A stretch of 64,000 nt of DNA, from NCBI RefSeq assembly GCF_030684315.1, contig NC_081369.1, forward strand, positions 2,470,689-2,534,688. The letters are read 5' to 3'. Source of the DNA: Stegostoma tigrinum (Eukaryota). Positions 680 to 55,960 of this stretch are shown piece by piece. Position 1 is the first letter of the stretch. Each line of letters opens with the position of its first letter. The notes below the pieces were generated by a model. That model saw nothing but the letters and a program-made list of their open reading frames with translations. It was not told the DNA's origin and did not search any database. The position numbers were made by a program, and so were the translations under genes.

Positions 680-2768
680 CCAATTTAATGGCTGGTGTCC
701 AAAGTGGGATGTGAGAGACTTGACAGGTGTAAACTGTACCGCTCTGAACGGGTTCTGTCTCAGTTCGGTTTCTGGAAGCCTCATACAGCCCTCATACTTA
801 ATTCTGCAGTTTGACATGTTCCGTCCCGGTTGCAATTTCTGATTCATTTTTGTACGAAGTGATGTTCAGGTTATCTGGGAACAACGCAGCGGTTATGCAG
901 AGAAGGGTTGGAGGAACAGTTGCTCCGTTCTACGGCAGCTTGATGACTATTTTGAGTAGAGTCGGAGGGATTGACAAAAAAAGAAAGCTTTTGTTTTTCA
1001 GCCTGCATTTAATTTGAAACATCGATGCAGAATTCCGTCACAAGCGCAAGCAGAACCGGAAAACCGCAAAGATCGTGCACTTAGATAGTAAGTAGTTAAA
1101 ACTGTGTAGTTCAAAAAATCCGCTGGTTCTTTTGGAAGAGGAATCGGAAATGTTCGTCAGCGCCGAATTACAGTCGTTTAAAGGGGAAAAGTTTGAACTA
1201 ATATCGCAGTTTTAACATCAGAGGTGGAATCAAAACAAGTGTTGATTTTAAATTTTCGTCGGCAAAACACCTCTTCTATCTCTGAATTCACAAGTTGATT
1301 ATTTCAGTGACTCAATCTTCTGCCATTTTTCTCCAAGTATTAACTGTGCAAGACATCATATTTCGAATAATTCATGCCAGCTATGAGATGTATGTTCCTT
1401 CAGTGTGATTTCCCTTCTGGGAGCGAGATACTTATATCCCCACCACCAGAGAGATCGCTTTTGAGAGCACAATAAAAACTCCCGACACAAAATACAAGAA
1501 GTGGATGTGATCAACTGAGTGAAACTCGCACTCAACAAATTATAAACTTAATGTAAACTCAGCGGAAGTGCATGCAAGGTTTAAGTAAATACGCTTTCGT
1601 GTTCATTGGGAACCGTAACATTTCTTGAGCGAGGTATCTGTCATAGCCCACATCTAATTTAAAAAAAACAAAAGTCAGACTGGGTTTGTATGCGTTGAAA
1701 CGTGGAAAACGGAGAGGAGATTTTATTGAATTTTAATAGCATCATGGAGGATTTGGCACTGTAGATGCACAAAAGGTTATCTGCCCTATGGGATAGGCTA
1801 AAACTAGTGAGCACAATCTCAGAATAAGAGGTCACTCATTTAAAACGGAAATAAGGTAGAAATTGTTCTGTTGGAGCGTAGTGTGTAGAATTCTTTACCG
1901 CAGTGGGCTACTAAGATTCGATTAGCAGTATATTCTATACTACCATGGACATACTTTTCATTAGTGACTACATCAAGGGTTATAGGGAAAGGCAGGAAAG
2001 TGGAATTGTGGGTTATCCGATCAGCTATATCATTTCTTGGCGCTGTTAACCCAATGGGTCTTCCTCCGCTCCTCCGTCAAATGGTGTTAAGATCATAACA
2101 GAAGATTACACATTCTTTCATTTTAAATTGAACCCGCATTTTAACATTTTTTCAGCTGAACACTTAAAACCAATAGCACAGCTAACACGGCATTTCTCCC
2201 TCTCCCTGATACTTATCGTACACGACCAGGTTGGTGCAAGATTCGTTTCCAACCGCGTAGTGTGTCACTCTGCAGTAATAAAGCCCGGCATCTTCCACTC
2301 CTACTTCCGCCAGTTGTCGGGCAACTCCTCCTTGCTTGAGGGAATAAAGCTGGATCCTGCGATCCAAACTTTCCTCCAAGAACCCATCTCTCCACCACTG
2401 CACTTTCACCGGCTTTTTTTCCCTATAAAGATCGGGTAAATGCAATAAAGAGTAAGGGAGGCGCCTGTCCTGACTGCAGACTCTGGGGTGAATTGGGAAT
2501 TGTGAGACCCTGTCGCAAAAAAAGGCAAAATTCAAGGCCTGACTATCCAATTAAACAGCCCATAACAAACCTAGAACATGTTAGGAAAAGACGCACATAT
2601 TGAAAAAAATATACCCAACCGGAAAGGCAGAATAAAAAAAAACTTTGATATATATTTATCATTAACAAAATGAAAGAGCAGTAGTCCTTTGGGAAGAGGA
2701 CCTTGAACAGATTTACCTGTGTAACTGACCGCTAACATGGCTGTGCAGTGACGTAAGACTCTGAACAT
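680..2768 (-). pseudogene. IgSF V-C1 receptor pseudogene A: leader 2768-2717, V 2509-2217, C1 ~970-680
   Basis: Leader MFRVLRHCTAMLAVSYT G|gtaaat. V GASLTLYCIYP / frameshift in A-run / VQWWRDG..EDAGLYYCRV..GNESCTNLVVY, donor mutated to G|ataagt. C1 PPTLLKIV..*..LLCITAALFPDNLNITSYKNE..GLYEAS..VYTCQVSH with a stop, a frameshift and a lost acceptor. Confidence 0.85.
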
Positions 2769-2834
2769 CTTCAGCAGCTAAAGGAAGTGACTCTTTGCCT
2801 CTTTTTTTCTCTTTCTACCCATATCATTGATACC

Positions 2835-7068: not shown

Positions 7069-7076
7069 TGACGTCA
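7069..7076. promoter_or_regulatory. Perfect CRE palindrome TGACGTCA ~170 bp upstream of the gene B ATG
   Basis: Motif match and position only. Confidence 0.35.
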
Positions 7077-7241: not shown

Positions 7242-7730
7242 ATGCCTGTACTTGAAAGAGCATGGTACCTGTCAGCCTTGGGCATTATTTACACAGGTAT
7301 AAAAAACCAAAAGCTGTCGGATAAAAACAAAGTGAGTAAAAACTGTATGTAGATTTCTGCTTCAAACCCACGCTTATATATGTGTGTGTTTATTTTATTG
7401 TTTCTGACAGCTACCAATGAAACCCCGTTCTCTGTGACTCAGTTCCCCGCAAGCCAAACTGCATTGGAAGGAACAAATGTGTCCATCTATTGTTCCGTTC
7501 CGCTATTCGATCAGAACCCATTGGTGGACGTTTAGTGGCGGAGTGGCGACCAGGACAAAACTTTGAACCTGACGGCAGACCGAAGGAAACTCATGTTCCC
7601 ATTCAAGCATGGATCTAACAAGTTCCAACTGCTGAATCTACATTTCCAGGACTCTGGAATCTATTATTGCAGCATTAGGGTCGGGGCAGGAAGATTTTCA
7701 ATGGAACTGGGTCGAGTCTTATCGTTCACG
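7242..7730 (+). pseudogene. IgSF V-domain receptor pseudogene B: leader 7242-7296, V exon 7411-7730
   Basis: Leader MPVLERAWYLSALGIIYT G|gtat. V ..SVTQFP..EGTNVSIYCS..DV*W (TAG 7533-7535)..LLNLHFQDSGIYYC, then a frameshift before FNGTGSSLIVH G|gtaagt; the 320-nt exon is not a multiple of 3. Confidence 0.88.
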
Positions 7731-9664
7731 GTAAGTGCCACTGAGCTATAAATGGGCCTGTGTAAAATTCAACAGCCATGAAAGAATAAAATAACAGACA
7801 CTTGTGTCCGTTATTGAGATCTTTTACGCTGCCCCGCTATGTGTAGTGAATCAGTTAGTGTGTTTCAAAAAAGCTGACTTCTGTTCATCAATGTTCTCCA
7901 ATCTAGCAAAACCTATTTAAATATCATTTATTGTCTAAAGAATTTAAAATAATATGGGCATCCTTGAGCCACGACCAATGCTTATTGCTGTTACATATAT
8001 GTCGCAATTTCCACAATGATGCGTTTCAGTGAGGTTATCGTTAATCGCTTCAATTGAGATTATTAAAATAGTTGTGCGGTGCTCTCGCCTAAAAAATTGG
8101 AACAATCTGATTATGTCAGGAGGAAGAAAAGGTGGAAGCCCATGGATCTGAGATATATAGTTTAAGAAGTTTTATCAAGTAACAGGGCATTTTGTAGATG
8201 ACCCTTACTGCAAGCAGAGTGTCCCTACAGTTCTAGCATTTACTGTCAAGTGTGTAACGTCATCGGGGAGTTTATTCTGACTGTTGTGCAATATTGTTGC
8301 AGTAACGTGTATACATAATTTAGCGGGTATTGCATCGTAACATTTGCTTGTAGCGGGCAATGTGTAAACTCCTGAGTCGTTTGTTGCAGAATCCATGAAG
8401 TTTTGCCAGAAATTTCCGATTAACTGATTCACAAATTCAAACACAAGGAAAGGCAGAAAATACTAGAAAGACTCAACCGGTGTGGCAGCATCTGTGCCGA
8501 GGAATCAGAGTTAATCTTTCGGGGCCAGTGACCCTTTTTCAGAATTTTAAATTCTGTTTTCAGTTGTTTTTATTTCCAGCATCAGCTGTTCTTTCATGTG
8601 TTTTTTTTTCAAATGAATGAAAAATGTTGATGTCCAGCTGATGCTGCTTGGCCGGCTGTGTTCATCCAGCTCAACACCTTCTTGCCTTTGACTGAACTCA
8701 TGTTCATTTAGTTTAAAAGATCCATCGCAAAGAAAGTATTCAGGTCTCAATGAAATCTTAGTTGGATCCATTTCAATCGTTATTCTCATGAAAAGAACTC
8801 CACTGTATTTCTCCTTAGGACAGAGTCTTTTTCTGATTGTCTATGGAATCAGTCAGGATGCAGTGATGGAATCAAGTAGGATCCAGTGTGCACGACGAAG
8901 GGAAAGTTCTGAAGGGGGATTTCCCGACGTGAAACGTTAACTCTGCTTTCTGTCCACAGATGTTGCCAGCTCCGCTGTGTTTCTCCAGCAATTTCTGCTT
9001 CTACCATAGCATGTCAGGAACAGTGTCACAAAATTGGAAAAGGGGATAGATACATTGTACTGAGTGAAAATAAAACAACTTTACACCAAAAAAGTTATAA
9101 ATTGCGATTTCGACCATAATTTATGTCTAGAATTGCTGACAGCGGATTACGTCTATGTTGATAGAGCCTACGCAGAATATCCCATTGGATTCATGGCCTT
9201 TTCCACTTGGAGGATAGGAGGCAGAGAGGTGGCCGTACAGAGGTATATAAAATCATGAAAGACATAGATAAAGTAGATAGTGGACTGCAGTTCCCCATGT
9301 TTTAACTCCATCCGGTTAATCTCTATGACTGAGATTCTATGGCCACTTGCCACTAGGATAAATAAAGCAGGTGTTTGTTTCCACTCAAGTTATTCTTTAC
9401 TCAGTCCTACCCTTTCCCTGTGGGATTTACCTATGTGTAATGTGTTTAGTGTTACCTTAAGTTACTGTTTTTGTGTCTCTAACTGGCTTTATTTTGTTCT
9501 CTATTGAAAACTAGCAATTGATTTGGAAGATTTCTATTTTTACCGTGACAATTGCTTTACTAAAACAGTTTACAAAACATGGCTATGGGGTGAATAGATT
9601 CTGTGCACTCCTGGACTTTTGTTTGCAATAGACTCCTTGCAAACTATCAAGTTTAGTGATAGAG

Positions 9665-15571: not shown

Positions 15572-15580
15572 CCTCCCCAC

Positions 15581-27725: not shown

Positions 27726-27759
27726 TTTCACTTTTGAAATGTCTATGTGTTATTTAGAA

Positions 27760-29856
27760 CAGGACGCCTGTATGCTATGCATTGTGTAGAATGGAACCCC
27801 TACATTGTGGAAATCGGCCCTTCAGCCCAACAAGTCCACACCAGACCCACCCCACTATACCCCACCTAGTCTACATATCCCTGAACACTACAGATAATTT
27901 AGCATGGCCTGATCCACCTACACTGCACATCTTTGGACTGTGGGAAGAAACTGGAGCACCCAGAAGAAACCCATGCAGGNNNNNNNNNNNNNNNNNNNNN
28001 NNNNNNNNNNNNNNNNNNNNNNNNNNNNNNNNNNNNNNNNNNNNNNNNNNNNNNNNNNNNNNNNNNNNNNNNNNNNNNNNNNNNNNNNNNNNNNNNNNNN
28101 NNNNNNNNNNNNNNNNNNNNNNNNNNNNNNNNNNNNNNNNNNNNNNNNNNNNNNNNNNNNNNNNNNNNNNNNNNNNNNGAACCCAGTCCCTGGTGCTGTG
28201 AGGCAGCAGTGATAACCACTGAGCCACCGTGCCGTGCAGGTACACGTTTTTTTTTAAACTACATATTAACTGTTCATAATCAAGACACAACGTGAACTGA
28301 AAGCCGTATTGGAAACTGTGCAGACACTTTCTTTCATTGTTATTTTCATGCACTTTTTGCATGTTAAGCATTCACAGAGCTCATTTGTCGCTGTGTTATG
28401 GGGAAGAAAAGATAACATTCAATGAGCATAATAGTTTAAAAATTGGAGAATTAGTCAATTAGGCATAGTAAATTGCGTTGTATTGATGGTCTGCAGCAAG
28501 GATGTTACACGGACAGACCATTCTTCTTGTTTCACCTCAATGTGTATCCTTGGTTGATAGTTGATGTGGGCATTTTGGCCAAAGTAAAACTGGATCTTGG
28601 AAGTGTAACCACACAGAGAGCTTCATCAATTCCTATGCTGTGCCCTTTCTTCTTCAAAATTGATCATTCAAATGTAGTCACTTACTGGTGGAGAGAATAA
28701 CACCTTTCTGTAGGAGGATGAGCAGAAAGTTATTTACTGTAGTGAGAGGAGTGGCCTCCCTTCATCTCCTGAATGAGGCTGTGCAGGACGCTGGAACATA
28801 TCCCTGTGAAGTCAAGTCTTAGCATTGAATGGTTGGGAAAGAAACTGCTGTGCAACATTTTTTTTATGAGAAGTGTCACTGCAAACAAGCATGGTGTCTT
28901 AGCTGCATTTCACATTAGCATTCAACTTCTTCAGAATGAAATTATCATAAGTGTGAGAAACTTGTAGAAACCAGTACAGTGTGAAGATTCCCATCTGCAT
29001 TTCATTGGAAACTTGTATTGAAATGTATCTATCGCAGAATAAGTTAATACCAAACTTCAAAGCCACCCATTGTTCTTTTCTAATCTAAGCATCAGGAAAC
29101 AATTTGAAAAGAGCCAGGTATGATCTGCACTATTGCATATTTTGAGTATCCGGCATCTAATTGAAAATAAAATTGCTGAACGCATTGTTTGGACCATAGG
29201 TGTCACAGTTTCATTGATCGAGAATCCAGTTCCAAACTGGTTGTTACGAGGAGGATGCAGAATAGCATCACAAATATATTTGTAATAATTAATCTGTTTA
29301 TTGTTAGAAATCAATTTTGCTGAACTTGGAAATGGTGCACCAATCATTGTGCTGGGGAGCAGGGGGTCATTGCATATTAAATATAACATTTACTCCCAGC
29401 AAATAATGAATACAAATGCAGAAACTGTGGCCCTGAAAATACAAATGGTTTGTTCATTAAATCGTTGAAGTTTTGCAGTTGGATTCTGATGTTTAGATTT
29501 ATCTGAATTATGTTGTTTACAATGCAGGTTCACCAGGTCCCATGAAAATTGTGACAGTACCATTGGGAGAAGCTTTTTTCATTTTGCAGAGCAGCGCTTT
29601 GTCCTTTTGCCCAAAAGAAGACATTCTTATTTGGCACAAAAACAACACAAAAGTCTATACTGGATTTGGAAATGAAAAACAAGTAAACACAAACAGGCTT
29701 TGAAGTTGTCAGCACGTTAGAGTGTCAGAAGCAGTCGAGTGTGAAACAGTTTACACTTGTCAAGTGCCTTACATTTCAAGCTAATTTCCAGCAAATGTCA
29801 GTTACACTATTGCGAAAGAAGTGTGGGGGCGTCCTGTAAATGTCCACGCAAAGTGA
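27760..29856 (+). pseudogene. V-C1 pseudogene C (close paralogue of the intact gene): leader split by a SINE, V 28561-28868, C1 29528-~29820
   Basis: V VDVGILAKVKLDL..MLCPF..VTYWWRE*..ASLHLLNEAVQDAGTYPC with stops and frameshifts, donor lost. C1 SPGPMKIV..IWHKNN..VYTCQV..FPANVSYT. The leader-V intron matches that of the intact gene. Confidence 0.85.
27980..28178. other. Assembly gap (N run) inside a SINE
   Basis: 199 N; the SINE and paralogue homology continue across it. Confidence 0.98.
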
Positions 29857-37012: not shown

Positions 37013-38000
37013 CCAGTGATGGTGCATCAGTCTGCACTGTCTGGGCACAGTGCCACTCTATACTGAACTAAAATTTGAAGAAGAAACTGCCAATTATGAA
37101 CTGAAGCAAATTAACTGAGCAAAATGAACCACCAAAATATCAGAGAGATAAGCAATCAGATCTCTTCAGCTTTCTGGATGTGGAATAATCAACACAAACA
37201 AACATTCTCACAGTAACGGCAAGAGGACAAACAGGATTAAAACTGCTGCCACAGTGGAAGCAGAAAGAAGTATCTATTCAAGCTAGAAAAAAAAAAGAGT
37301 GAAACACAAACAAGTTAAGGACAGTAGCCAAAAGAAGCCTTGTGAACATTTGTCACAGTAAATCCCATCATTTCAAGGCCAAATGCACAGACTGGAGAAA
37401 GGGAAAGAAAATATCAGCATTGCCCCGTGTTGCCAATGCAAGCAGAATTATGATGAATATCTGACGATACACAAACACAGAGAAAAACACTCAGTAATAA
37501 CCTTCATGATCAATATGTCAAACTTCATGCAAATTGAAAGGGCATAAGGAGGTCCTGGACAGTCAAAAATAATTGAGTTGTGATTTTTAGTTGTAACTGT
37601 TGCACAAATTTTAAAGCTGAAATGAATTGGATCCAGGTGATATTACTCGAAGGGAAGAAATTCATCCATATATTTGCAAAATTATGAAAGGGTTTATACA
37701 AGTAAAATAACTGTTTAAATTTGATAAGAAACATAATCATCTCTGTAATAAAAACTGCTTCTATCTTTTTAGCGTAGTTTTGTTTTCCCAAATCGGAGGC
37801 TGCTTTTCACAACTGCATACAGTGGACTATTTTCTTGGTGTTTGGATTTCGATGATGGACTGGAATCATTGAATTTCAGAGCAAGGTAAATCAGTCTGCA
37901 GTCTGTCATGCTTTGTTTTGTCTGAAAAACAGCATTGAGACTGAATTACCATTCATTTAAATCATTCTAGATGAAAATTGCATGCAGGCAACTTTCAACA

Positions 38001-38174
38001 TCATTTCATAATCAACTCATTATGATGAATGAACTCATTATTTATACATGAGATCTTAAAAGTACCTCTGTATATTGTGGTATAGTCCTGTTGTTTTAGC
38101 ATTATGTCATCCTCAGAGCCAACTCGATTAAGAGCAGCATATGTCAGCTTATCCTCAGGCATCTTCCGTTTTCT
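38001..38174 (-). CDS. Terminal cytoplasmic exon with ITIM LTYAAL (38130-38147)
   Basis: ctctag|AGA phase-0 acceptor matches the phase-0 end of exon 40787-40741; RKRKMPEDKLTYAALNRVGSEDDIMLKQQDYTTIYRG...MK*. Confidence 0.75.
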   Translation of the reverse strand, partial: RKRKMPEDKLTYAALNRVGSEDDIMLKQQDYTTIYRGTFKISCINNEFIHHNELIMK

Positions 38175-41100
38175 CTAGAGAGTTAAGATTCAATATTCAT
38201 TTGGTTGTTTTATTTTGGTGTAAAGAGATGCATATACATTCTTAGCATGGACAATTAGTTTGTCGTACTATAAAACAACAAATGCTGGAGATCGCAGTGG
38301 CTCAGGTAACATCCACGAAGGGAGAGCAAGTTAATGTTTCCAGACTAGATGATTCTTCATCACAGTTCTGCTGAAGATTCATCCATACTCAAAATACGAG
38401 CTTTCTCCCTCCGTGGATGCTGTCTGATCTGCTGTGATCTTCAGCATTTGTTGTTTTCAGGACAGATTTCAATATCTACAGTGATGTGTTCCTACAGATT
38501 GTTGTACTGACTTTGCTAACACTTCACTACAATCATTACATTTTCCTCTTTCTGACTTTGAACTGTTTCTTACGAGGAACAGCACATCTATTCACAAGCA
38601 AACATTATTTTCTGATATTATTAATGTTAATCTAATTTTAATTTAAAGTTACATTTGTCAGTTCAATTTAATTTGGGTTTTAAATTCTGAGGGGTGAATT
38701 CCTGTCTTATTACATTCTGCTACAAATTGAACATGCAATAACATTTATTAAATGCAAAAAAAAACTTGACTTTGTTTAGGAACGATAAAAATAAACACAG
38801 ATCCCATTGCTTCACACTAAAATTATAAGTGGCAATTATTTGAAATGAATTAATAACGTCGTTCTGAGGAAAGGTCACGACCTAGAACATTAACTCTGAT
38901 TTCTCTCTGCAGCTGCTGCCAGATCTGCTGAGCTTTTCCAGCAATTTATTTTTTTGTCAGTGGATAGATGGAGGATGGACGGTGCAGGATTGGCCTAAAC
39001 ATTCCCTCACATTAAATTAGCTACATTAGTGAGCCAACTCGAGAGAAGGAATAACTGTACTTACCACTGCTATTTGAAATTTAATTTTAGAATCACCCTG
39101 TTCATTTCTGAATAAGGGAAAGTAATTATTTCAATGGGCCATCTGAATGGTAATAAATAAAAGTGCTGAAATCTGAAGTGAAGACACAAGTGTAGTGCAT
39201 TTTCAGTCAGAAAATGTGCCAACTATTTTGGGAGGAATATATTCAGGTAACTGACAATGAAAAAATGTGACAAGTATGGTGCGCTTTTGTCGAACAGTTA
39301 AGCCACAATATTTTAGTGCTCTAAGGTATACTCTTTGGTCTTCTGTGGAGTATTTCTCAGTCATAGCTAATTTTGTTTTCTCTTTCCATCTGATCCACTG
39401 CTCATGAAACAATAAAACACAGGCTAGGCATTGCACCTGGACATCAGAGGACTTTATTCTGTCACTGACAGCAGAGCAGCTGCAACATTTCACAGAAAGA
39501 TGTGCAGTAATGGAGTAAAGACTTTGGCATAATTTTCTGAAGACCTCCAAGAAAGGCTTGTCATTTATGCTGCACCTGCAGTACGTCAGTGAGTGTATTC
39601 TGCATGAAGTACTATTTTTAATAGGATGTGAGCCTCAGTAGCAAGGCCAGTATTTGGTGCCAATAACTGTTTACTATTGAGAGTCCAACAGCACATCAGG
39701 TTTCTTGACTGACTGCAGTCCAACATTGTTGTCAGGGAGAGTGTTGCAATAAAAGAGGAGGGTACTTTTTGCAGTATTATACACAAGGAAGGAAATGTAT
39801 TTTTTTTTAAATAAAGCAACTTCAGATCCACGACTGAAACTGAGATGATAAAGCATTTGAATTAACTTCAAGACTCTGACTGTTTCAAAATGTATTTAAA
39901 GAGGCTACATCTGCTGATCTGCACTGCATTGAATTGCAGTCAAGAAAAACAATGTGTAATTACATTGTGTCATCTGGACAGTGCAAACAAACCACTGTCG
40001 GGTAATCCTGAGTAAGTCCCACCTGCTCCTTTTCAGTTGCCATAGCTCGGAAGGTGTTTCTCATAAGTTACTGATATCCACATTTGAAAATTAAAAATAA
40101 GAGATGTTTGCATCACAACAGCTTGTTGATTTTTTTTCCCCCAAGATTGTATGTTGCTGTAGCAGAGAGTTCACTAGCAGAGAGACAGCCGAGAGCGTAA
40201 GCTTTCTAAGGAAGCCAATTTGTACAAGCCGTCTGCATAATACATTGAGTTCTTTGGCAGAGTTGCTTGGTAGGAGACAGACGTAATCACCTAACTCTGA
40301 CTAATGCTTAAGTGAATTGAGAATGGCATAGAAAGGGAGAAGAAAACAATATTGTCTCTTTATTTTCCATGGAACCTATCAGAGTGGTCATCACCACAAT
40401 ATAATCAACATTGATTATAATGTAATCAATGTGGCAAAATTATTCAAAATTATTCAGCACTCTGTCACTTGTGAAGTTTGAAAGAAAACAGAAATCAAAG
40501 CTGGTTGTCGGCTTCAAACCCATGTTTGATGATTCAACATCATTGTAACAGTTGTGAAACTTGCTGCCATTTTCTATTTGTTTTATTTTGTTTTTATTTA
40601 GTTGAAGTTGTGTTTTTGAGAGCTGATGAAATCTTCATTACTTAACTTGACATGTTAGGAATACACATTTGTGTTCCCAGCTTAACTGTTCAACTAGACT
40701 TGAAAGTTAAAACAGACAGAGTAAACTAAATTTGTCTTACCACATCATCATGCTGAGCTGGATTTATTGTTTTTTTCTGTGCCCCACCTGAGAAACAACA
40801 AAGACATAAGTCAGCAACAAAAACAGCAGATAATTGTACTCATCAGCCCCAACCAATGAAACCAAAAGATATTTGACTTCTATTCGACATTTGTAAACAG
40901 GGTACAACAGGAAAAACAGTTTCACAATACAGCTCTAAATGTTACACACAGATGCTTTGAATTTATGTTTTGAGGGTTAAAGCTATAGAAACATTTTTCA
41001 GCAAAGAATTTTACCATCACAACTTTGATCTACACCGATACAACTTCTCAAAGTGAAACTTCAAATTTTCTTCTTATTTTATGTTTGATGTGAAGCACGG

Positions 41101-44100
41101 TATATGTTTGGAAGAGGTTTCACATTAATTAGTTGTTTAAATTATACAATTCAGAAATTCAGTTCCCAATTGTGTTAATTTCAGTGAGGCATTTCTATCC
41201 TATTCATACCTTTGGAGATAAAGAACAGAAAACCCTTGACAATCATCACGGTCAATATTAGAATTGCAATTGCACGAGCGACACAACTGGCAGCCATAGT
41301 AACACTGATTTTAGAGGCAAAATCTGCAATGATAACATAAATTCAAAATTAGGGATTGCACCAGAAACTGAAGATACGCACGTTTTAAATGCCATGTGCA
41401 TCGTTCGCAATTGGACTGCCTTGAACCTGTGGTAAATACCATACATAAAGTCTCAGCATTTCAATTTTGTTATCACTTTGTTCAACTAATCCGTATGCAG
41501 CCAGATTAAAAATGCCTGGAATTTACAGAAATAGGTAAATAATAAAAGTACCTCAACTAATGACACATTTTAAATTAATAGAGCTAATCGCAATCAGTGT
41601 TCAGTTCTCTCAGCTATATTGAAAAATTACAAGTTATTTGGTGGGAGATTAGTTGGATTGCACACAGATCAAGGTCAGAAACCATACATAATGGAATCTG
41701 CGGTCAGATTTCCTTGTATTTTCCATGGAGGTAAACTTCATTTGAAATAATTTTAATCTCTTTGCAGCTATGACCCAATCATCTATGACCCTATGTTTTG
41801 TGTTTAATCAAGTATGTGTCACTCTGATGAATAAGGAAAATAAACTGGATGCATGGAGGTGTACCATAGAGTCAGACAGGTTTACAGCATGGAAACAGGA
41901 CCTTCAGCCCAACTTGTCCATGCCGCCCAGTTTTCACAACTGAACTAATCCCATTTGCTTACATGTGATCCATATCCCTCCGTACCCAACCTATCCATGT
42001 ACCTATCCAAATATTTCTTAAATGACAAAATAGTACTCATCTCCATTACTACCTCTGACAGACTTTTCCAGATACTCACATCACTCTGTGTGAAAAAAAT
42101 TCCTCCTCTTTTGTATCACCCCTCTCTTACCTTAAACCTATTCCCCCAACCCCCCCCCCCCCAGTTTTAGACTCCCCTACCATGGAGAAAAGCTGTTGAA
42201 TCTACTTATCTGTGCATCTCATGATTTTATAGACCTCTATAAGGTCGCCCTTCAGTCTCCTATGGTCCAGGAAAAAAAGAAGTCCCAGCTTATCTAGCAT
42301 CTCTTTAGAACTCAAGCCTTCCAGTTCATGCAACATCTGAGGAAATATTATCTGCACGCTTTCTAATTTAAGCATATCCTTTCTGTAGTAGGTGACCAGA
42401 ACTGCACACAGTTACCTGACATTTGGCCTGTCCAAATTCAATACTGTTCATGCTTTCACAAGAATTAATATTGATCATGCAGCCCTTTGCAAGTCATCAG
42501 TGTATGCAGAAAAGAATGATGTGACCAGTGTTGAAGACTGATATTTAATTTTGGTAGTCACATGTGATAACTACATATCAGCTCCAAACAGCATGAAGAA
42601 AGAAAACTTTAAACCATACAATAGGACTTAAATTCAATTTTGACATAACTGCATGCAAATGTGGAGGCAACAGCCACGTGGTATTATCGCTAGACTGTTA
42701 ATCCAGAGACCCAGACAATGCTCTGGGGACCTGAGTTCAAATCCCAACACAGCAGATGGTGGAATCTGAACTCATGGTCTAATGGTGACCGTGAATCCAT
42801 TGTTGATTGTTGGGGGAAAAAACCCATCTGGCTCACTAGTGTCCTTTAGGGAAGGAAACTGCCACCCTTACCTAGACTGGCCCATATGTGATTCCAGAGC
42901 AATGTGGTTGACTCTGAACTGCCCTCTGGGCAATTTGGGATGGGCAATAAATGCTGCCTAGCTAGTGATGTCCTCATCACTAGAATGAATAAAAAAAACT
43001 GTCTTTTGATATTATCACATGCAAATGACTGCCATAATCACTTTTTACATATTTACCCATTTTAAATGATACATGAGCATTCGATGTACCACATATTATG
43101 AAATGTTACCTTTATTTATCACAGTGTAGCTGGCATTTGTCGGAAATGAGCTTGAAACATGATATACTTGACAGGTGTAAACTGTCTCACTCTTGACTGC
43201 CTCTCGCAACTCTAAGGTGCTGATGACTTCATAAAGATCCTCAGGTTTTGCCAGCTGTTCATTCCGAAATCCTGTCAATATGTTTGTGCCATTTTTATAC
43301 CAAGTAAGGTTAAAGTCTTTTGGGTAAAAGTCTGATGTCCTGCACTGGATTCGGAGAGAAGCAGAAAAAAGGTCTTCGGATGGCATGGAGACAATTTTCA
43401 GAGGAGCTGGTAGTGCTGAAAGGTAAATAACATAAATTAGATGAATTGATTTTGCATCTTCTCCAAAAAACGTACTGTTTATTTTAGCAAAACAATCATT
43501 TCGAGCACATCAGTTGTATTAATTTTTGCTATGAACATGACATGAAATTGATGCTACATTTATCAGATTTTAAAAATCCCTCAATTCCTCTCAATACACC
43601 TCCTGCATATTTAGAAAAAAAAGCTTTCAGAATTTTTTTCTACTTAATAACATGACCTTTCTTTTGCAAACAGGATAAAGAATTGGATCTGGATCCGACG
43701 AATTTAGCAAAGACCATGCAAGTGATTGAACCAAGAATTTGGCTCTTCTTGTGAGATAAGAAACATTTCAAAATGCATAGTTTTTCAAATACCTTCAAGA
43801 AGTTTCATCCTGTAACTCCATATTCGTGTGCAAAGTAAAATTTGAAAGTACTGCATTCAATTTTGCTGCAAAATGCACAAATGCATAAAAGCTAAATGCA
43901 TAAAACTGAAGCAACCCATGACCAAATGCAGCAAGAATTGGACAACAGCCGGGTTTGGGCTAAAAAAGTTGACTGTAACATGCAGGCTACACAAATGGCA
44001 GGCAACCATCTTCTCAAATGAGAGACAATATAATCATCCACCCCTTAATATTCAGTGGCATCACCATCCGTGAGTTCCCCACTATCTATAGTTTGGCAGT

Positions 44101-45617
44101 TACCATTGAGCAGAAACAGAACTGGGCGAGCCATATAAATAGAGCCATAGGTCAGAGGCTAGGAATATTGCAGCAAGTAAATCAACTGCTGGCTTCCCAA
44201 AGCCTGCCCGCCATCTGCAAGGCACATGTCAGGAGTGTGTTGGAATGCTCCCCATTTGCCATGCCTACGGGTCGAAAAGCACTTAAGAAGTTGGACTCCA
44301 TCCAGTAAAAAGTCACTCACTCACTGATTGGCACCACATTCAGTCACTCCACCACATATACTCAGCAGCAGCAGCGTGTAACTTCTAAGATGCACCGCAG
44401 AAATTCACCAAAAGCCCTCAGTCAACACCTTCCAAACGCACGATCACTACCATCTAGAAGGGCAAGGGCAGTAAGTATTTGGAAACACCACCAGCTGCCA
44501 GTTTCTCCCAAGCCACTCACCATGCTGACTTGGAAATATAGCACTGTTCCTTCACTGACACTGGGTGAAAATCCTGTAATTTCCCCCTAATCGCATTGTG
44601 ATTCTACTTCCAGCACATGGGCTGCAGCTGTTCAAGAAGGCAGCTCACCACCATCTTGTCAAGGGCAACTAGGGACACGCAATAAATGCTGGGCAGCCAC
44701 TGATGCCCACATCCCACAAGGGATTTATTTTTAACACAGAGTAGATCTCAAATTTTGAGGATTTCCTGGTTCTCCAAGGTCTCCATTTTCTTTAACGTTT
44801 CATTTTAAACAACTGCCAATATTATACGCAAAATGTCTGTGTCTAATACATTGTTTTGATTCCTGTTTTAGATTGTTTTCAAGCAGCTAAGACTCCGTGT
44901 TTATCTGCGGTGACACTTACCATATACAATAAGTTGCACAGCAGCTTGCCCAAGCTTTTGTTTCTGATATGCGACTGCACAGTGATACGTTCCAGCGTCC
45001 CGGACTGTCACGTTCAGGAGTTTAAGGGAGGCTTCTCCTCTAATTACACGGAAGAGCTTTTTGCTGTCCTCCTGCAGAACGGTTTTATTATCTTCTTTCC
45101 ACCAGTAAGCTGTAACATTTGAATAATCAAATTCGGCGGAGAAAGTACAGTGCATGAGAACTGATGAACCTCCCTGCACCGTTTTTCGCGTAAGGTCCGG
45201 ATTCACTTTGGCCGAATTGCCCACAGCAGCTGTCAACCAAGGAAACACACTGAGATTAAATAAGAAGGACAGTCTGCACCGCCTCAGTAACATCTTTATT
45301 CTAAGCCATTGATGCAACAGCAATTTACCACATTTTACTCTTCGACTAATTCTCCCATTTTTAAACTATTGTCCTAATTGAATGTTACATTTTTTTTCTG
45401 ACAGACCCAATGATAATTGCGTTCTCGGAGTAACTGACTTTAAAAAAAAGACAACAAGAATAAAAAATATCCATTTATTAATCAAATTTATCAAATCTAG
45501 TTGTAAATTTACATTGCGTCTTGCTTGTGATCAGTGAATGCTCAGCAAAGAGAAATACGTACCTGAGCACAAGATGCCCAGCAGACAGACATCCCATAGT
45601 GAATGACACACAAACAT
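38001..45617 (-). CDS. Intact multi-exon IgSF receptor, V-C1-TM-ITIM (SIRP-like/antigen-receptor-like architecture, non-rearranging), 334 aa. Exons 45617-45563 (leader), 45229-44921 (V), 43415-43110 (C1), 41323-41210 (TM), 40787-40741 (Cyt1), 38174-38001 (Cyt2 + stop)
   Basis: All introns are GT..AG with matching phases 1,1,1,1,0. Total 1005 nt, no internal stop. Leader MFVCHSLWDVCLLGILCS; V ...VLMHCTF..AYWWKED..ASLKLLNVTVRDAGTYHCAV..VQLIVY; C1 ..RIQCRTSDFYPKDFNLTWYKNG..YEVISTL..VYTCQVYH; TM ISVTMAASCVARAIAILILTVMIV; tail ..EDKLTYAALN.. Confidence 0.85.
39065..39097 (-). CDS. Candidate optional 33-nt cytoplasmic micro-exon (GDSKIKFQIAV)
   Basis: aacag|GGT..GTG|gtaagt, symmetric phase 0/0, fits between Cyt1 and Cyt2; supported by splice signals only. 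Confidence 0.3.
41210..41323 (-). CDS. Transmembrane exon (contains Arg)
   Basis: attgcag|AT..AAAG|gtatga; 114 nt; DFASKISVTMAASCVARAIAILILTVMIVKGFLFFISK. Confidence 0.8.
42664..42998 (+). mobile_element. tRNA-derived SINE of a second family
   Basis: B box gagttcaaatccc; tail gggcaataaatgctg..gaatgaataaaaaaaa shared with the LINEs ending at ~13450 and ~44725. Confidence 0.75.
43110..43415 (-). CDS. Ig C1-set domain exon of the intact receptor
   Basis: ctttcag|CA acceptor and AAG|gtaac donor; 306 nt; C-x4-FYP, W-x-KNG and YTCxVxH hallmarks of C1-set. Confidence 0.92.
43905..44725 (+). mobile_element. Same LINE family, 3' end, in the V-C1 intron of the intact gene (antisense)
   Basis: GQRLGILQQV..KAHVRSVLECSP; aligns with 12600-13450. 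Confidence 0.8.
44921..45229 (-). CDS. Ig V-set domain exon of the intact receptor
   Basis: ttgacag|CT acceptor and TATG|gtaagt donor; 309 nt, phase 1/1; B-strand Cys, C-strand Trp and DxGxYxC motif present. Confidence 0.92.
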
Positions 45618-47550
45618 ATTGGCAGTGAAATTCCAAGACCATCATTTGTGATTGAGAACAGGACAGACAAATGCTTCTTAAATGCTTGTCTCTGTCTCCA
45701 ATTTAATCACATACGTATGTGTGCACCAAAGAGCACATGACTATTTGCAGATTGAAAAAAAAACACTTGCCCTCTCAAATACAGTCCGCTGCTTTTGTCG
45801 CCAGAAACCGCCACAAAAATGACGACACGAGAGAAGGTACAGAAGGTATATCGGAGGTTGTTGTTGAGACGTGATTGGATTGGATAGGATGAAGATTTTA
45901 CCACAGAAAGAATATGAGCCTGAGGGGGAATTTTATTGGGATGCACACATCTGAGATGAGCCGAGACACAGTAGATAGGGAAAAGTTCAGTAACCTTCAT
46001 ACTGCGGTCAGTGATGCGGGGGTTGTAGATTGAAAGAGATTGATAGGAAAGCTTAACTGGGAGATGAGAAAACAGCTTATCACAGACTGTGGTAACTATG
46101 TGGAACCCATTGCCCGAACAGATATCAGTGACAGGCACCTTTGACTTTTCACAAGTTGTTTTTGCTTGGATGTGCACTTGAAGTGCTGTAATCTGAAAGG
46201 CTTCACGCTAAATCCTCGATAGTATGATTTGATTTGTCGGCTTCTTTCTCGGCAGGCAGAGGCAAGTGCTTTTGGTTTTCAGTGTTGTTAACCTCTTTAA
46301 ATGGAATGTTGTGAAGACCACTGTAATTGTAGCAATTTGAAGGACTTGGAGGCAATACTGCTACACCCCGGAATGCAAGAAGGGAAGTGGGATACAGTTA
46401 TAAACGTCTCACTCCTATATCCGAAAGAATTGAGCCGGAATATCAGATTAACCTGCCGAAATCTTTTTTCTTATTACATTTTAAACGCCTCTACAAATTT
46501 AAATTGCATAGCCGACTTCAAGTTTCCAACATCGGAGGAAGCGTCCGTTCAGCGTCCGTCCAGTTCAGGCTCCTCAATGTTAGGTCCACATGGAAGATAT
46601 ATATTCTTACTTTTCTAAACTCAAATGGGTACAGGCCCCATTTGTTCAACCTCACTTCAATTTTTTTGCTTAATTTGATAAAGAGAATAAAGTCACCCAT
46701 TATTACTGATGTCCCGAATCACAAACACCAATATTTCCTCTTGTATGTTTTGTCTCACATTAATGACTGTTCAGTATCTTGCAGACCCCTTGTCTGTTGT
46801 TTTATTTCCTACTATCCCCAATTTCTACCCAAATAGATTTATCACCCTGATTCTCTGAATGACTGTAAAATCTAAATATTGCACAAATGGCATCCATGAT
46901 TGGATAGTCATGATTTGCAATCCTTTCACCATCACCTCGTTTCCTAACCTTAGTGTGTGTTCTTATTTCAAAATATTTGGTACTCAATACTTATACGCTA
47001 TGTCACCACAATGTTATAAAATTGTAATTGTTTCTGTTTATGTATGGTCTGAACTCACTTATTTTGTGAACAACCCAATGAGCATTTCCAAATGTATATT
47101 CATCAGTTTGTTCATTTTTGCCAACTTTGTAACACCTCATCTTGACTGGTAATGTATTCCTTCTCTCTCTCTCTCTCTTTGCCTTTTGTGCCTTTCTCTG
47201 AAGCTCATTTCCCTTGTTCTTATTTTTCTCTCTTCACTTATCTTTACCCTGTGATAGACATCATCTTTCTACGTGACCTCTTGCTTCCACCATTTAGCTG
47301 AAAGCCCTCTCGATTTACCTAGTTATGCCAGCCCCAAGAACACTGCCTGTAGCATGGTTCTGGTCAATCACAATGGTACAGATGTCAATCTCCCCAGTAC
47401 AGCTGGCTGTTCCTCATGACTAACTTCTCTGTCACAATTCTTTGGAAGGAGGCTACTATTAATCTCTGATGACATATGTGCCTTATTTAGAGCTGACTGT
47501 TGTTCTTGAGAAGCTTCCTTGAGGGGAAAATAAGCTCCAGATGAATGGTA

Positions 47551-48603
47551 GATAAAAAAATGTGAGGCTGGATGAACACAGCAGACCCAGCAGCATCTCA
47601 GGAGCACAAAAGCTGAAGTTTCTGGCCCAGACCCTTCATCAGAGAGGGGGGTGGGGTGAGGGTTCTGGAATAAATAGGGAGAGAGGGGGAGACGGACTGA
47701 AGATGGAGAGAAAAGAAGATAGGTAGAGAGGAGAGTATACGTGGGGAGGTAGGGAGGGGATAGGTCAGTCCAGGGAAGACGGACAGGTCAAGGAGGTGGG
47801 ATGAGGTTAGTAGGTAGGAGATAGAGGTGCGGCTTGGGGTGGGAGGAAGGGATGGGTGAGAGGAAGAACAGGTTAGGGAGGCAGGGACAGGCTGGACTGG
47901 TTTTGGGATGCAGTGGGTGGAGGGGAAGAGCTGGGCTGCTTGTGTGGTGCAGTGGGGGGAGGGGACGAACTGGGCTGGTTTAGGGATGCGGTGGGGGAAG
48001 GGGAGATTTTGAAGCTGGTGAAGTCCACATTGATACCATTGGGCTGCAGGGTTCCCAAGCGGAATATGAGTCGCTGTACTTGCAACCTTCGGGTGGCATC
48101 ATTGTGGCACTGCAGGAGGCCCATGATGGACATGTCATCTGAGGAATGGGAGGGGGAGTGGAAATGGTTCGTGACTGGGAGGTGCAGTTGTTTATTGCGA
48201 ACCAAGCGGAGGTGTTCTGCAAAGCGGTCCCCAAGCCTCCGCCTGGCTTCCCCAATGTAGAGGCAGCCACACCGGGTACAATGGATACAGTATACCACAT
48301 TGGCAGATGTGCAGGTGAACCTATGCTTAATATGGAAAGTCATCTTGGGGCCTCGGATAGGGGTGAGGGAGGAGGTGTGGGGGCAAGTGTAGCACTTCCT
48401 GCGGTTGCAGGGGAAGGTGCCAGGTGTGGTGGGGTTGGAGGGCAGTGTGGAGCGAACAAGGGAGTCATAGAGAGAGTGGTCTCCCGGAAAGCAGACAAGG
48501 GTGGGGATGGAAAAATGTCTTGGGTGGTGTGGTCAGATTGTAGATGGCGGAAGTGTCTGAGGATGATGCGTTGTATCCGGAGGTTGATGGGGTGGTGTGT
48601 GAG
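47551..48603 (-). mobile_element. Penelope-like 3' fragment (GIY-YIG + 3' end)
   Basis: ORF 47873-48343 NVVYCIHCTRCGCLYIGEARRRLGDRFAEH; near-identical to 60596-61650. Confidence 0.9.
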
Positions 48604-50554
48604 ACCCCCTCGTTCGCACAACAACCTCTGTATGAAAAAGTTGCCCTTAGACCTCTTTTTAAATCATACCCCTATTACCTTAAACCTTCACCCTCTAGTT
48701 TTGTAATCCTCCACCTCGGGGAAATTAGTGATTATTCATCCTATCCATGGCCTATGATTTTATAAATCTGTATAGGGCCACCCAATACCCTCCGACACTC
48801 CGAAGAAAATAGCTGTAGCCTATTCAGTCTCTCCTGATTTATTAAACCCTCCAGCCATGGTAAATGTCTCGTAAATCTTTTCTGAACCCTTTCAAGTTTA
48901 ACAACATCTTTCCTATTGCAATGAGATCATGGTTTTAAGAGAAACACTATTCCAGGTTTTTATGGCATTCAAATTACACCAGTTAGCTCTAGTTGCTCTC
49001 TTATAGAACAGATATTATTAACCTAGAAAGAATGCGTTAAAACGTACTGGGGGACATTCGTAGCCTATACCATATCGCCAAGAGAGCAGTTAGCAACCAT
49101 TCAATTTATAGTGAGCCACATGCAGGCCAATTGACAATGGCTGAATTACTTCCACAGGACATTAGTAAACTAATGGAAGTAACTACATGAAAATCTTGGA
49201 CTTCTTGTTCACAGATCACTGAAGGTGGCAGGGCTGGTTAAAGGAATGGTTAAGAAACATACAGGGCACATGCTTATGTCTGGAATGGTACAGATTATAA
49301 GAGGAGAGAGGCTACTTTGGAATTTTACAGGACTTTCGTTAGTCCAGAGCGGGAGTGCTATGTTCATTAAGATTTCCTAGGATCCTCCGTGGACTGGAAG
49401 ATTTGAGTTATAAGGAGAGGCTGGATAGTGTGGGCCTTCTTTCCCTAGACCATTGGAGACTGAAGGGTGACCTTACATAGGTCTGAAAAATCATGAGAGG
49501 CAGAGGTAAGTAGATAGCTAACAGCTTTTCCTCATAGTAAGACAGCCTAAGATTCAAAGGCATAGGTTTGAGGTAAAAGGGGAGAGATACAAACGAATCT
49601 AGAGGAGCGATATTTTGACAAACAGGATGATGTGTGTTTGGAATAGCCTGCCAGAGGTAGTGGTGGTTAATTCACTGTAGAGTGGCCCTTTGCCCAGACA
49701 GAGCAGACTGATGCTCCATCCGTGATTGCCCTTTGTTTAGCATTGCAATCTCATTGTAATATGGTACAGTAGGACAAGATGGTATGTCTGATGAATGTTT
49801 CTGAATCATGAAAATGTGTTCTTCATTGAAGTGGGAATGAAATTAGAGAAAAGAAATCAATTTACATTTGAACAAATCATGTTGACATATGCCTAAGTAA
49901 TTCTTTCAATACATTTGTGTGTTCTATTCTCAAAAATGGCATATAACTAATACAGATTCCAAATAAATTACAATGCTTCTCTTATTATATTGTGAAAAAT
50001 TCTCCAGACTCAATTGATTTGGAAAATAGAGCAATCTAATCTATCACCATTGCTGCATTGTGAATTTGCTACTGACAGGAATGCATTCTGTGGCTTGCCT
50101 ATCAAAAACTTAGAAATACAAAGCCATGAAAATGAATTAGCAGTCTGAATAGTTTTTGAAAGGCTGCTTGAAAGTTGTGCACTGGCGATGGAAAGGCAGC
50201 ACAGATGATGACAAATTCTGTTTGTCTTGTTGGAAAAGATTGGACAGCTGCAAAGATGAAGAAGTTGGTTGACTGAAACATGTAAAATCTTCGGGGGTCT
50301 TGACAAGGTAGATATGGTGACATATCGTCCCATGGAAAAATCTAAAACGAGGTACAATGGTTATAAAAAAAATCAGAGTTTGACCATTTAAAACAGCGTT
50401 AGACATACATTCTCTCACAGGTGTCTGAGTCTTTTGGAATACTATTCCTAAAAAGGTAACAGAAGCAAGGTTGAATATTTTTAAGTCACCAACTGATAGA
50501 TTCCAGTGGAGCAAAGAAGTGAAAGATTGCCACGAGTACTGTTTAAATTTGGGG

Positions 50555-51665
50555 TTAGAACATACATAAAGCATAACAGCACAGTACAGGTCCTTCGGCC
50601 CTCGATGTCGTGCCGACCTGTCATACCGACCTGAAGCCCATCTAACCTACACTATTCCATGTACGTCCACATGCTTATCCAATGACGACTTAAAGTTGGC
50701 GAATCTACTACCGTTGCAGGCAAAGCATTCCATTCCCTTACTACTCTCTGAGTAAAGAAACTACCTCTGACATCTGTCCTTTATCTTTCACCCCTCAATT
50801 TAAAGCTGTGCCCCCTCGTGCTCGCCATCACCATCCTAGGAAAAGGGTCTCCCTATCCACCCTATCTAACCCTCTGATTATTTTATATGTTTCAATTAAG
50901 TCACATCTCATACTTCTTCCCTCTGATGAAAACAGCCTCAAGTCCCTCAGCCTTTCCTCGTAAGACATTCCCTCCATACCAGGCAACATCCCAGTAAATC
51001 TCCTCTGCACCCTTTCCAAAGCTTCTACGTCCTTCTTATAATGCGATGACCGGAACTGTACGCAATACTCCAAGTGCGGCCGCACCAGAGTTTTGTACAG
51101 GTGTAGCATAACCTCTTGGTTCCAGAATTCGATCCCTCTATTAATAAAAGCAAAAATGACAAACAGCAGTGGACCCAACACCGACCCTTGCAGTACACCA
51201 CTAGTAACTGGTCTCCAGGATGAACATTTCCCATCAACTACCACCCTCTGTCTTCTTTCAGCAAGCCAATTTCCGATCCAAACTGCTATATCTCCCACAA
51301 TTCCATTCCTCCACATTTTGTACAATAGCCTACTGTGGGGAACCTTATTGAACACCTTGCTGAAATCCATATACACCACATCAACCGGTTTACTCTCATC
51401 TACCTGTTTGGTCACCTTCTCAAAGAACTCAATAAGGCTTGTGAGGCACAACCTTCCCTTCTCAAAACCGTGCTGACTATCCCTAATCAATTTATTCTTT
51501 TCTAGATGATTATAAATCCTATCCCTTATAACCTTTTCCAACACTTTAGCAACAACTGAAGTAAGGCTCACTGGTCTATAATTACCAGGGTTGTCTCTAC
51601 TCCCCTTCTTGAACAGGGGAACCACATTTGCTATCCTCCAGTCTTCTGGCACTATTCCTGTAGAC
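50555..51665 (-). mobile_element. CR1 LINE RT fragment with an in-frame internal deletion
   Basis: ORF 50828-51751 PEDWRIANVVPLFKKG..GSVLGPLLFVIF|AFINRG; the FADD region is missing. Confidence 0.9.
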
Positions 51666-53498: not shown

Positions 53499-54154
53499 GA
53501 TAATAAAATGTGAGGCTGGATGAACACAGCAGGCCCAGCAGCATCTCAGGAGCACAAAAGCTGACGTTTCGGGCCTAGACCCTTCATCAGAGAGGGGGAC
53601 GGGGTGAGGGTTCTGGAATAAATAGGGAGAGAGGGGGAGGCGGACCGAAGATGGAGAGAAAAGAAGATAGGTAGAGAGGAGAGTATACGTGGGGAGGTAG
53701 GGAGGGGATAGGTCAGTCCAGGGAAGACGGACAGGTCAAGGAGGTGGGATGAGGTTAGTAGGTAGGAGTTAGAGGTGCGGCTTGGGGTGGGAGGAAGGGA
53801 TGGGTGAGAGGAAGAACAGGTTAGGGAGGCAGAGACAGGTTGGACTTGTTTTGGGATGCAGTGGGTGGAGGGGAGGAGCTGGCCTGTCTGTCTTCCCTGG
53901 ACTGACCTATCCCCTCCCTACCTCCCCACCTATACTCTCCTCTCCACCTATCTTCTTTTCTCTCCATCTTCGGTCCGCCTCCCCTTCTCTCCCTATTTAT
54001 TCCAGAACCCTCACCCCATCCCCCTCTCTGATGAAGGGTCTAGGCCCGAAACGTCAGCTTTTGTGCTCCTGAGATGCTGCTGGGCCTGCTGTGTTCATCC
54101 AGCCTCACATTTTATTATCTTGGATTCTCCAGCATCTGCCGTTCCCATTATCAC
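53499..54154. mobile_element. Penelope 3'-end fold-back insertion (~655 bp)
   Basis: Two inverted copies of the PLE 3' end joined at ~53883; 15-bp TSD tgccttgg(a/g)ttattg at 53485-53499 and 54155-54169. Confidence 0.9.
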
Positions 54155-54323
54155 TGCCTTGGGTTATTGGTGGGAAGGCTCTTTTGCTGACCTTTGAATT
54201 GTCTTGTTCCAAGGTACCAGTGTGTATCATTTAAATACTACAGCAGGCTTTTGCATTTTGTTTTAATCCTTGTCGACCATTTTGTGCTTCAAATGTGCGC
54301 TGCTTTGGTGAAGCAGATATGGG

Positions 54324-55960
54324 TCACTTTGTTTGGATGAGTACAGGCCACCCCCACACTTCTTTCGCAATAGTGTAACTGACATTTGCTGGAAATGAGG
54401 TTGAAACATGATGCACTTGACAAGTGTAAACTGTTTCACATTTGACTGCCTCTGACACCTCTAAAGTGCTGACAACCTCAAAATCTGTTGATGTTTACAT
54501 GTTGTTCATTTCTAAATTCAGTCAAGACTTTTATATTGTTTTTGTGCCAAGTAAAATTAAAGGCTTTTGGGTAAAGGACAGAAGTCCTGCACTGCAGAAT
54601 TAAAGAATCGTCTTGTCATGGTACTGGCATAATTTTCAGGGGAGCTGGTGAAATTATGTTGTAAATAGCACAATTGAGACAAATCTAAAGATCTGAATCC
54701 TACTGCAAAGCTTCAATGATTTAATGAACAAAATATCTGTAATTTCGGTGACATAGTTTCTGCATCAGAATTCACTCCTTGCTTGGAGAAAATATCACAT
54801 TTAACATATTGCAAACTTCTGCACCCCTAAAGCAATTGATACAGTATTTTCAAGTTCAGCCACATTAGTTTCTTACAATACACATGTTAATTATCACAAA
54901 TATATTAGTGATGTCGCTCTGCATTCTTCTCGTAACAACTGGATTGTGGATTGTAGAAACTGCAACAGCCACAGTGCAAATGATGGGGACAGCAATTAGA
55001 TATGGGATATTCAAAATATCCAACGTTGCAGGTAATATCTGTATCGTTTCAATTGTTTCCCAATGCTTAGATTAGAAAGAGGGCTCTGGAACTATTTTCA
55101 TTAGAGTTTAGAAGGATGAGTGGGATCTAATTGAAATTTTCAGAAAACTGAATGGCGTGGACACAGTGGATGTTGGGAAGATGCTTCCATTCATAGGAAA
55201 GATTAGGATCCAAGGGCACAGCCTTAGGGTAAAGGCAATACCTTTTAGAACGAAGATAATGAGATGCTTCTTCAGCCAGAGAATTGTGAATCTGTGAAAT
55301 TCGCTGCCAAGGCAGGCCGTGGAGACCAGGTCATTGAGTACATTTAAGACTAAGGTAGATAAGTTCTTGATGATCAAGGGGATCAAGGGTTATAGGGAGA
55401 AAGCAGGAGAATGGGGATGAGGAACTTCTCAGTTGAATTGATTGAATGGTGGAGCAGTTCGATGGGCCAAATGGCCTAACATCTGCTCCTATGTTTGATT
55501 TTGAAGGAGAAAGGGCTGAGGATGAGAACTGGTGAAACTCTCTTTGTGGTGATTCACCTAAAATCCGGTTTTAATTTGGCTGAAATACCCACAGCAACTA
55601 TCAACCAAGGAAACACACCGAGATTAAACAAGAATGATGGTCTGTCCAAATAACATCCTTGTTCCAGGTCATTGATGCAACAGCAATTTACTTTTGCCTA
55701 ATTGACTAATTCTCAAATTTTAAAATTATTATCCTCATTGAATGTCATTTTTTCTTCCCCCAAACACAGCAGTAAATGAGTTCTATGTATACTTAACATG
55801 CAAAAAACCCTCACAAAATTAATAATAACAAAATTAACTGTCCACGTAGTTTTCCAATCTAGCTTTAAGCCCACATTGCGACTTAATTATGAACAGTTAA
55901 TACTAAGCTAAAAAAAAATGCCCCTGTACACGCAATGCACAGCATACAGACACGCTGTTG
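54324..55960 (-). pseudogene. V-C1 pseudogene D: leader remnant ~55925-55960, 5' part of V 55597-55499 (rest deleted at a CR1 insertion), C1 ~54652-54361
   Basis: C1 SPAPLKIMPVP*..ILQCRTSVLYPKAFNFTWHKNN..FEVVSTLEV..VYTCQVHHVSTSFPANVSYT; inverted homologue of pseudogene C. Confidence 0.85.

Follow-up and report, generated by a model that had tools for sequence, protein, structure and literature searches.

Does the only open gene in a group of broken, immunoglobulin-type genes encode a working receptor, and if so, of what kind? The question arises from the window, a stretch of 64,000 nucleotides (nt) of the shark Stegostoma tigrinum (contig NC_081369.1, C19 below, positions 2,470,689-2,534,688), in which tblastn with open V and C1 frames, plus inspection, located five leader-V(J)-C1 units in the order -,+,+,-,-. 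Four of the five (units A, B, C and D) are broken and one (gene E) is open, just as a first-pass annotation of the sequence had it. That annotation also placed the units in a larger receptor complex, which was borne out: the window takes in part of an extensive shark family of non-rearranging VJ-C1 membrane proteins with a turnover of copies. Judging from the sequence, we consider that E is probably a working receptor that leans towards activation and is paired with an inhibitory-type twin, T. This inverted paralogue lies about 160 kb away and encodes the same V protein as E.

Gene E and its inverted twin T

Gene E has seven exons, all bordered by AG/GT, which encode a leader, a V-set domain, a C1-set domain, a transmembrane (TM) segment and a three-exon tail with one ITIM (an immunoreceptor tyrosine-based motif of the inhibitory type). 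The exons, and the tract shared with T, are as follows (positions in the window).

45563..45617, - strand: leader exon, 55 nt, phase 1
44921..45229, - strand: V(J) exon, a single exon of 309 nt (PF07686, E=2e-10)
43110..43415, - strand: C1-set exon (PF07654, E=5e-13), 280 of 306 nt as in T
41210..41323, - strand: TM exon, with an Arg codon, CGT, at 41276-41274
40741..40787, - strand: first cytoplasmic exon, 47 nt
38066..38174, - strand: tail exon, 109 nt, with one ITIM (LTYAAL)
37769..37921, - strand: last exon, out of frame from acceptor 37921, with a stop at 37868
44298..45249, - strand: E/T tract, 952 nt with 1 difference; the T side lies at about C19 2,674,800-2,675,760

The first pass had called E the one live gene, where "live" amounts to an open reading frame (ORF); among the rows listed for this stretch (4, from one study) none is an RNA record. 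Its open frames and splice sites stood up to inspection, but the sixth exon, at 109 nt against 111 nt in the paralogues F, G and T, has a 2-nt gap at 38076/38075. The V and its J-like strand lie in one exon, with a degenerate J motif where most paralogues have a GxG-type one, and the translated C1 exon bears the hallmarks of the C1 set (13 residues from the B-strand Cys to the C-strand Trp, (F/Y)(F/Y/H)P, and xVxH, as given in PMC2785349). A further candidate exon, 39107-39065, was dropped for a phase mismatch with its neighbours and a donor lost in F, G and U. The same 43-nt segment is conserved, is bounded in E and T by what look like splice sites and reads through in one frame; it is possibly a lost exon.

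The evidence that ties E to T begins with their shared tract. It starts 20 nt before the V acceptor and covers the whole V exon, while its flanks are only 79% and 87% identical, and it was the sole embedded tract to pass the strict filter among the stretches compared. Both genes lie near the same diagonal of an inverted duplication (C19 2.416-2.480 versus 2.750-2.702 Mb, mostly 84-89% identical). T is open throughout and has a neutral TM segment and four tyrosine motifs. In E, by comparison, the TM Arg replaces the Gly of F, G and T, and the 2-nt deletion in the tail likely removes two tyrosine motifs. Both changes are common to E and one other gene, U, and public contigs (four runs on two samples from one study, possibly of the assembly's own animal) match the E tail exon without an indel. 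Because the tract is shared, T is neutral with four motifs, and E has the Arg and the deletion, E and T look like an activating/inhibitory pair homogenised by gene conversion.

Arginine and neutral membrane segments across the family

The wider family was followed through C19 2.00-3.11 Mb, all but 1.3 kb, and, in part, through 9.13-10.32 and 13.68 Mb. In cluster 1 there are 33 units, the five of the window included, over 0.9 Mb at 2.13-3.01 Mb (32 V exons plus the stub of unit D, with 33 C1 matches), and V and C1 are both open in 15 of the 33 (12, plus three with GTT donors). Cluster 2 adds at least 22 V exons at 9.18-10.26 Mb, 19 of them in the stretches examined and 3 from the genome search only; with one more at 13.68 Mb, the chromosome holds at least 56. 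Nearly all strong matches in searches of the shark's own genome fall on C19. A birth-and-death cluster, as the first pass had proposed, is near certain. In all open copies the V and J-like strand share one exon ending in a splice donor, so that V and J are not separate segments and a rearranging immunoglobulin or T-cell receptor (TCR) locus was rejected. E, G, T and the further paralogue P each have a single C1 exon, placed between V and TM, and this exon structure identifies a family of non-rearranging VJ-C1-TM receptors.

Tails in the family are mostly of the ITIM type or of the ITSM type (the tyrosine-based switch motif of immunoreceptors). We scanned 37 TM exons and set four aside beforehand (E, U, one mid-segment Arg with a tail and one Gln without). 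A tyrosine-motif tail exon was found in none of the 8 genes with an outer Arg versus 18 of the 25 neutral ones, with a Fisher p of 5e-4; this value is optimistic, since neutral genes supplied the tail queries and related genes do not count as independent. Tail erosion is not confined to Arg-TM genes, going by the sequence of G: its last exon (L007:6960-7110) has a 1-nt insertion, and the final tyrosine motif is gone.

Near-identical ectodomains joined to opposite TM and tail types, one mark of the paired-receptor class, occur in four pairs: E/T, U/P and two in cluster 2. U carries the Arg and deletion module of E, and its leader-V-C1 part is 95% identical over 7.5 kb to P, which is neutral and ITIM-bearing with four tyrosine motifs. 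Two trees of the 3' modules put E and U in one group (82/89 and 94/94, both unstarred), a grouping that is absent for the V exons. In cluster 2, the Arg gene at 10.224 Mb and the neutral gene at 10.255 Mb, arranged in tandem on the same strand, are 97-99% identical in the V and C1 exons and 63-91% in the neighbouring introns, some of which did not align, and the Arg gene at 9.914 Mb matches the neutral gene at 9.865 Mb at 95-96% over V. Shark database models also include an Arg-TM short-tailed homologue (P0002) and four-tyrosine homologues (P0004 and P0005). The paired-receptor logic suggested by the first pass is therefore backed by the Arg/neutral pairs, the E/T tract and the tail counts, all new to this analysis.

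How gene E may work, and the alternatives

If this logic applies, neutral-TM members would recruit SHP-1/2 through their tandem ITIM/ITSM-type motifs, and Arg-TM members, by analogy with paired receptors such as the NITRs (PMC2442602), would signal through an adaptor with an immunoreceptor tyrosine-based activation motif, such as FcR-gamma, CD3-zeta or DAP12. E and T would bind the same ligand, and the output of E, whose tail has one ITIM left, would be activating or weakly inhibitory. Gene conversion, likely recent, would have homogenised the two V domains, the inverted segmental duplication likely providing the geometry for it. A comparable case is Siglec-11/Siglec-16, inhibitory and activating partners homogenised by conversion over the ligand-binding exon, where dead alleles join in conversion and the converted exons are under relaxed constraint; the Siglecs are not related to the shark genes, their ligand is known and their function has been tested, and the mechanism alone is in common (PMC5701461).

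Several observations weigh against E as an activating-leaning partner. Compared with the outer Arg usual in the family, its own lies about 4 residues further in; going by hydropathy, a helix could start just before it, and it may thus lie at the membrane edge. One ITIM is kept, and the last exon is still open through a downstream acceptor. Besides the caveat on the Fisher test, tyrosine-motif exons are present in 3 of 11 Arg genes once E, U and the gene whose TM exon is at 2,886,092 are included, and U, the other carrier of the module, is dead. V homogenisation is possible without function, because unit B of the window and its twin B', both dead, are homogenised too. Finally, positive selection on the V loops was not detected: pooled dN/dS (the ratio of nonsynonymous to synonymous rates, by NG86 on 10 non-independent pairs) comes to 0.48 over V, 0.46-0.64 over the V loops and 0.30 over C1, all below 1, although one of the ten V pairs exceeds 1. 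The "pathogen-driven" turnover of the first pass is for the same reason not supported.

The alternative with most in its favour is that conversion is a neutral by-product of the inverted duplication and that E is a fifth dying copy. A TM missense change together with a tail frameshift is what early decay could look like, the position of E and T near the diagonal of the 84-89% block and the homogenised dead B/B' call for no function, U is dead with the same module, and the tail of G is frameshifted as well. Against this, the C1 exon of E is under purifying selection (dN/dS 0.19 versus T and 0.20 versus G), AG/GT has been kept at all seven exons, and the exon-restricted tracts of the same-strand 10.22/10.26 Mb pair are not explained by inversion. 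We regard decay as unlikely.

It is less probable again that E is dual or inhibitory, in the manner of KIR2DL4, signalling as an ITIM receptor through its remaining motif or by way of a downstream acceptor. One consensus ITIM is indeed kept, and from a weak acceptor at 37902, 19 nt downstream of 37921, the last exon is open with two tyrosine motifs restored; the last exon of U is similarly open from a shifted acceptor. However, the first AG directly adjoins a pyrimidine tract and serves as the in-frame acceptor in F, G and T, while the stretch upstream of the downstream AG is purine-rich, and splicing would be expected to favour the former.

An assembly or polishing artefact behind the identical V exons is very improbable: the identity is nearly perfect, the base of E at the single differing site is seen on T in 4 of 4 runs and none of the listed contigs spans the whole tract, yet at E and T alike, contig depth (not equal to copy number) rises to about 2x across the tract from a single level around it, and within the tract no variant other than the differing site and no alternative V sequence is listed.

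A broader reading, in which cartilaginous fishes have their own large set of paired receptors of natural killer (NK) or myeloid type on the two-domain VJ-C1 plan of a TCR or Ig light chain, but never rearranging, and E is a nascent activating receptor, falls somewhat short of an even chance. An inhibitory gene would have gained a TM Arg, lost half of its ITIM tail by frameshift, and in a last step would have had its binding domain overwritten whole by the inhibitory twin. E and T make an unusually clean test pair, with one V domain and two signalling ends. While the birth-and-death pattern alone is ordinary, no large variable innate-receptor complex for sharks was found in the literature searched, and a family of at least 56 genes with the architecture of antigen-receptor chains, both ITIM and Arg-TM members and ectodomains paired by conversion is a concrete candidate for one; it also bears on the role of non-rearranging VJ-C1 genes beside or before RAG-based receptors.

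Broken copies, history and known receptor systems

The remains of the four broken units are listed below, in window positions.

2717..2768, - strand: unit A leader exon, 52 nt, phase 1, with a GT donor
2217..2509 (approximate), - strand: unit A V(J) exon, dead, with a 5' frameshift and the GT donor lost
676..970 (ends approximate), - strand: unit A C1 exon, dead, with the acceptor lost and 3 stops
7242..7296, + strand: unit B leader exon, 55 nt, phase 1
7411..7730, + strand: unit B V(J) exon, dead, with a TAG stop at 7533 and a 1-nt deletion
27739..28240, + strand: unit C leader remnant, interrupted at about 27788-28233 by an inserted repeat of about 445 nt
28561..28870 (ends approximate), + strand: unit C V exon, dead, with stops, frameshifts and the donor lost
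29528..29820 (approximate), + strand: unit C C1 exon, dead and broken, with the donor lost, as in unit D
55924..55978 (approximate), - strand: unit D leader remnant, with ATG and GT donor lost
55491..55597, - strand: unit D V exon, 5' third, with a repeat of about 400 nt in place of the remainder
54360..54655 (ends approximate), - strand: unit D C1 exon, dead, with a stop, frameshifts and the donor lost

Leader exons of 52 to 55 nt, with remnants in C and D, agree with the earlier description, and the first intron measures 113 nt in B, about 207 nt in A and 333 nt in E. For unit B, C1 and TM exons were looked for within the window and none was found; no TM exon was found for C or D. Because C and D both lost the C1 donor and both are without a TM exon, they likely descend from one copy that was already dead. 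B' (C19 2.704 Mb) has the same stop and deletion as B, and the two are 92-98% identical over leader and V and 79-90% in the flanks. The window is repeat-rich, with about 32% in repeats with at least 10 matches. It contains recent retroelement copies at 31150-32675, 47543-48604 and 60588-63209, 87-98% alike and with long ORFs that presumably resemble reverse transcriptase. A Pfam scan of flanking ORFs (120 of 179 candidate ORFs) returned only reverse-transcriptase pieces.

In a V DNA tree of 52 rows, A, B and C/D/E fall in three subfamilies, in keeping with the distance of A and B from the others seen in the first pass. Its expectation that the window units form one clade did not survive: A, B and C as one group are rejected (approximately unbiased test, p=0.0001; E was left free owing to its identical twin). 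B groups weakly (85/76) with the catshark protein P0006, and the group of E (99/99) includes the horn-shark proteins P0003 and P0005, so that the subfamily splits are old. The window is thus a mosaic of subfamilies of long standing, not one local clade. In a tree with other V domains, two of five outgroups fall inside the family on long branches. Twins of A and B at 2.71 and 2.70 Mb lie inside the inverted duplication, and the mixed orientation points to block inversions and duplications, not to five independent events.

Compared with known systems, by its sequence features the family misses a defining feature of SIRP, NITR, NKp30 and UrIg, although by analogy it may work like SIRP, NITR or Siglec pairs; KIR, Ly49 and CHIR, named in the first pass, we take as analogies only. 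SIRP proteins have paired forms, the activating ones with a central Lys where the shark Arg-TM forms carry an outer Arg instead, and NSFL1C marks SIRP synteny. The SEP-domain genes lie on C5 and C23 and none on C19, where the neighbour is an OSGIN1-like gene just beyond cluster 1, at 3.07 Mb; this check uses one marker only. The available part of PMC2785349 gives SIRP-alpha/beta a V-set plus a true C1-set ectodomain, as here, with tandem tyrosine motifs on inhibitory forms, and that of PMC11599192 a joined VJ-type V. Unlike the shark family, with its one C1 and short V, the SIRP ectodomain is V-C1-C1 (PMC2785349). Teleost NITRs share clustered birth-and-death, a V with a J-like end, and an ITIM majority beside a TM-Arg minority lacking ITIM, but their second domain is I-type, and in the part of the source available they are reported in bony fish only (PMC2442602). 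MAP4K2/MEN1/RTN3 or FGFRL1 are the NITR synteny markers that this source names. The second domain of the shark family is C1-set by Pfam and PDB profiles, and NITR membership fails on it.

NKp30 (NCR3) resembles the family in its single-exon VJ domain and heads the Foldseek rows for the family V model, in a tie with VNAR among others. It has a TM Arg and no C1, while the shark family has a C1 exon. Linkage to the major histocompatibility complex (MHC) was rejected for the shark cluster, with MHC class I on C44 and no MHC-I match on C19, and linkage to the PBX paralogon was also rejected, with PBX on C10, C37, C44 and C45 and none on C19. PRARP/VJC1 genes, whose marker genes PBX and MHC-I are thus not on C19, are non-rearranging VJ(-C1)-TM genes with ITIM/ITSM, and have few copies in tetrapods. 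These genes are named in the available parts of PMC10751288 and PMC11599192. NKp30, unlike the shark cluster, is MHC-linked according to part of PMC12227049. The same portion describes UrIg and UrIg2, shark genes with a non-rearranging single-exon VJ followed by C1, as the family has. UrIg is secreted with 3 C1 domains and UrIg2 has 9-11, against one here; both are described as single genes, with linkage either to the MHC or to the Ig/TCR complex, and that text has no mention of ITIM (PMC12227049).

A profile of 22 paralogue V exons (not E as query) gave eight matches, seven of them named shark proteins labelled "uncharacterized", "Ig lambda-like" or "PTPNS1-like"; databases therefore model some members without naming a family. 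In a profile search of 1.84 billion representatives, multi-Ig proteins crowded the output and no usable relatives emerged, and in PDB sequence searches the V matched generic Ig entries only; the C1 has PDB profile matches to Ig constant domains. An AlphaFold model of a paralogue V (predicted local distance difference test 90.6) matched NKp30, VNAR, CD79b, TCR V and NCAM domains about equally, and since these V/I-set rows are tied, the fold singles out no family; SIRP and NITR structures are absent among the fold rows listed, which excludes nothing. No description of the cluster was found in the literature searched, supplements aside and including the available parts of PMC10751288, PMC6795676 and PMC3964593, and we provisionally regard it as undescribed.

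Some minor observations concern C19. Near-identical V-C1 units recur every ~77 kb at 9.22-9.61 Mb; two that were compared are 98.7% identical over 7.8 kb and more different around V. In L009-L012 (C19 2,619,729-2,648,310) there is a tandem duplication of 14.3 kb whose copies are 97.8% identical; V and C1 are open in one of them, for which no TM exon was found. The open V exon at L053:5368-5685 has Trp at the second canonical Cys, and a glutathione S-transferase exon, below the Pfam cut-off, lies about 45 kb before cluster 2 (L131:5750-5836).

Elsewhere, C14 at ~32.0-32.1 Mb (L112:3093-3545 and 7633-7974; L113:8308-8739 and 2222-2545) holds two single-exon VJ genes with C1 a few kb downstream, outside the C19 family in the tree and with an E-I-P-P-P motif in the third complementarity-determining region; that motif is given for chondrichthyan CD28H in the available part of PMC11599192. 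IgH-like constant exons lie on C55, and C20 at ~34.4 Mb (L114, L115) has tandem arrays of several C1-like exons that are not IgH-like at a glance.

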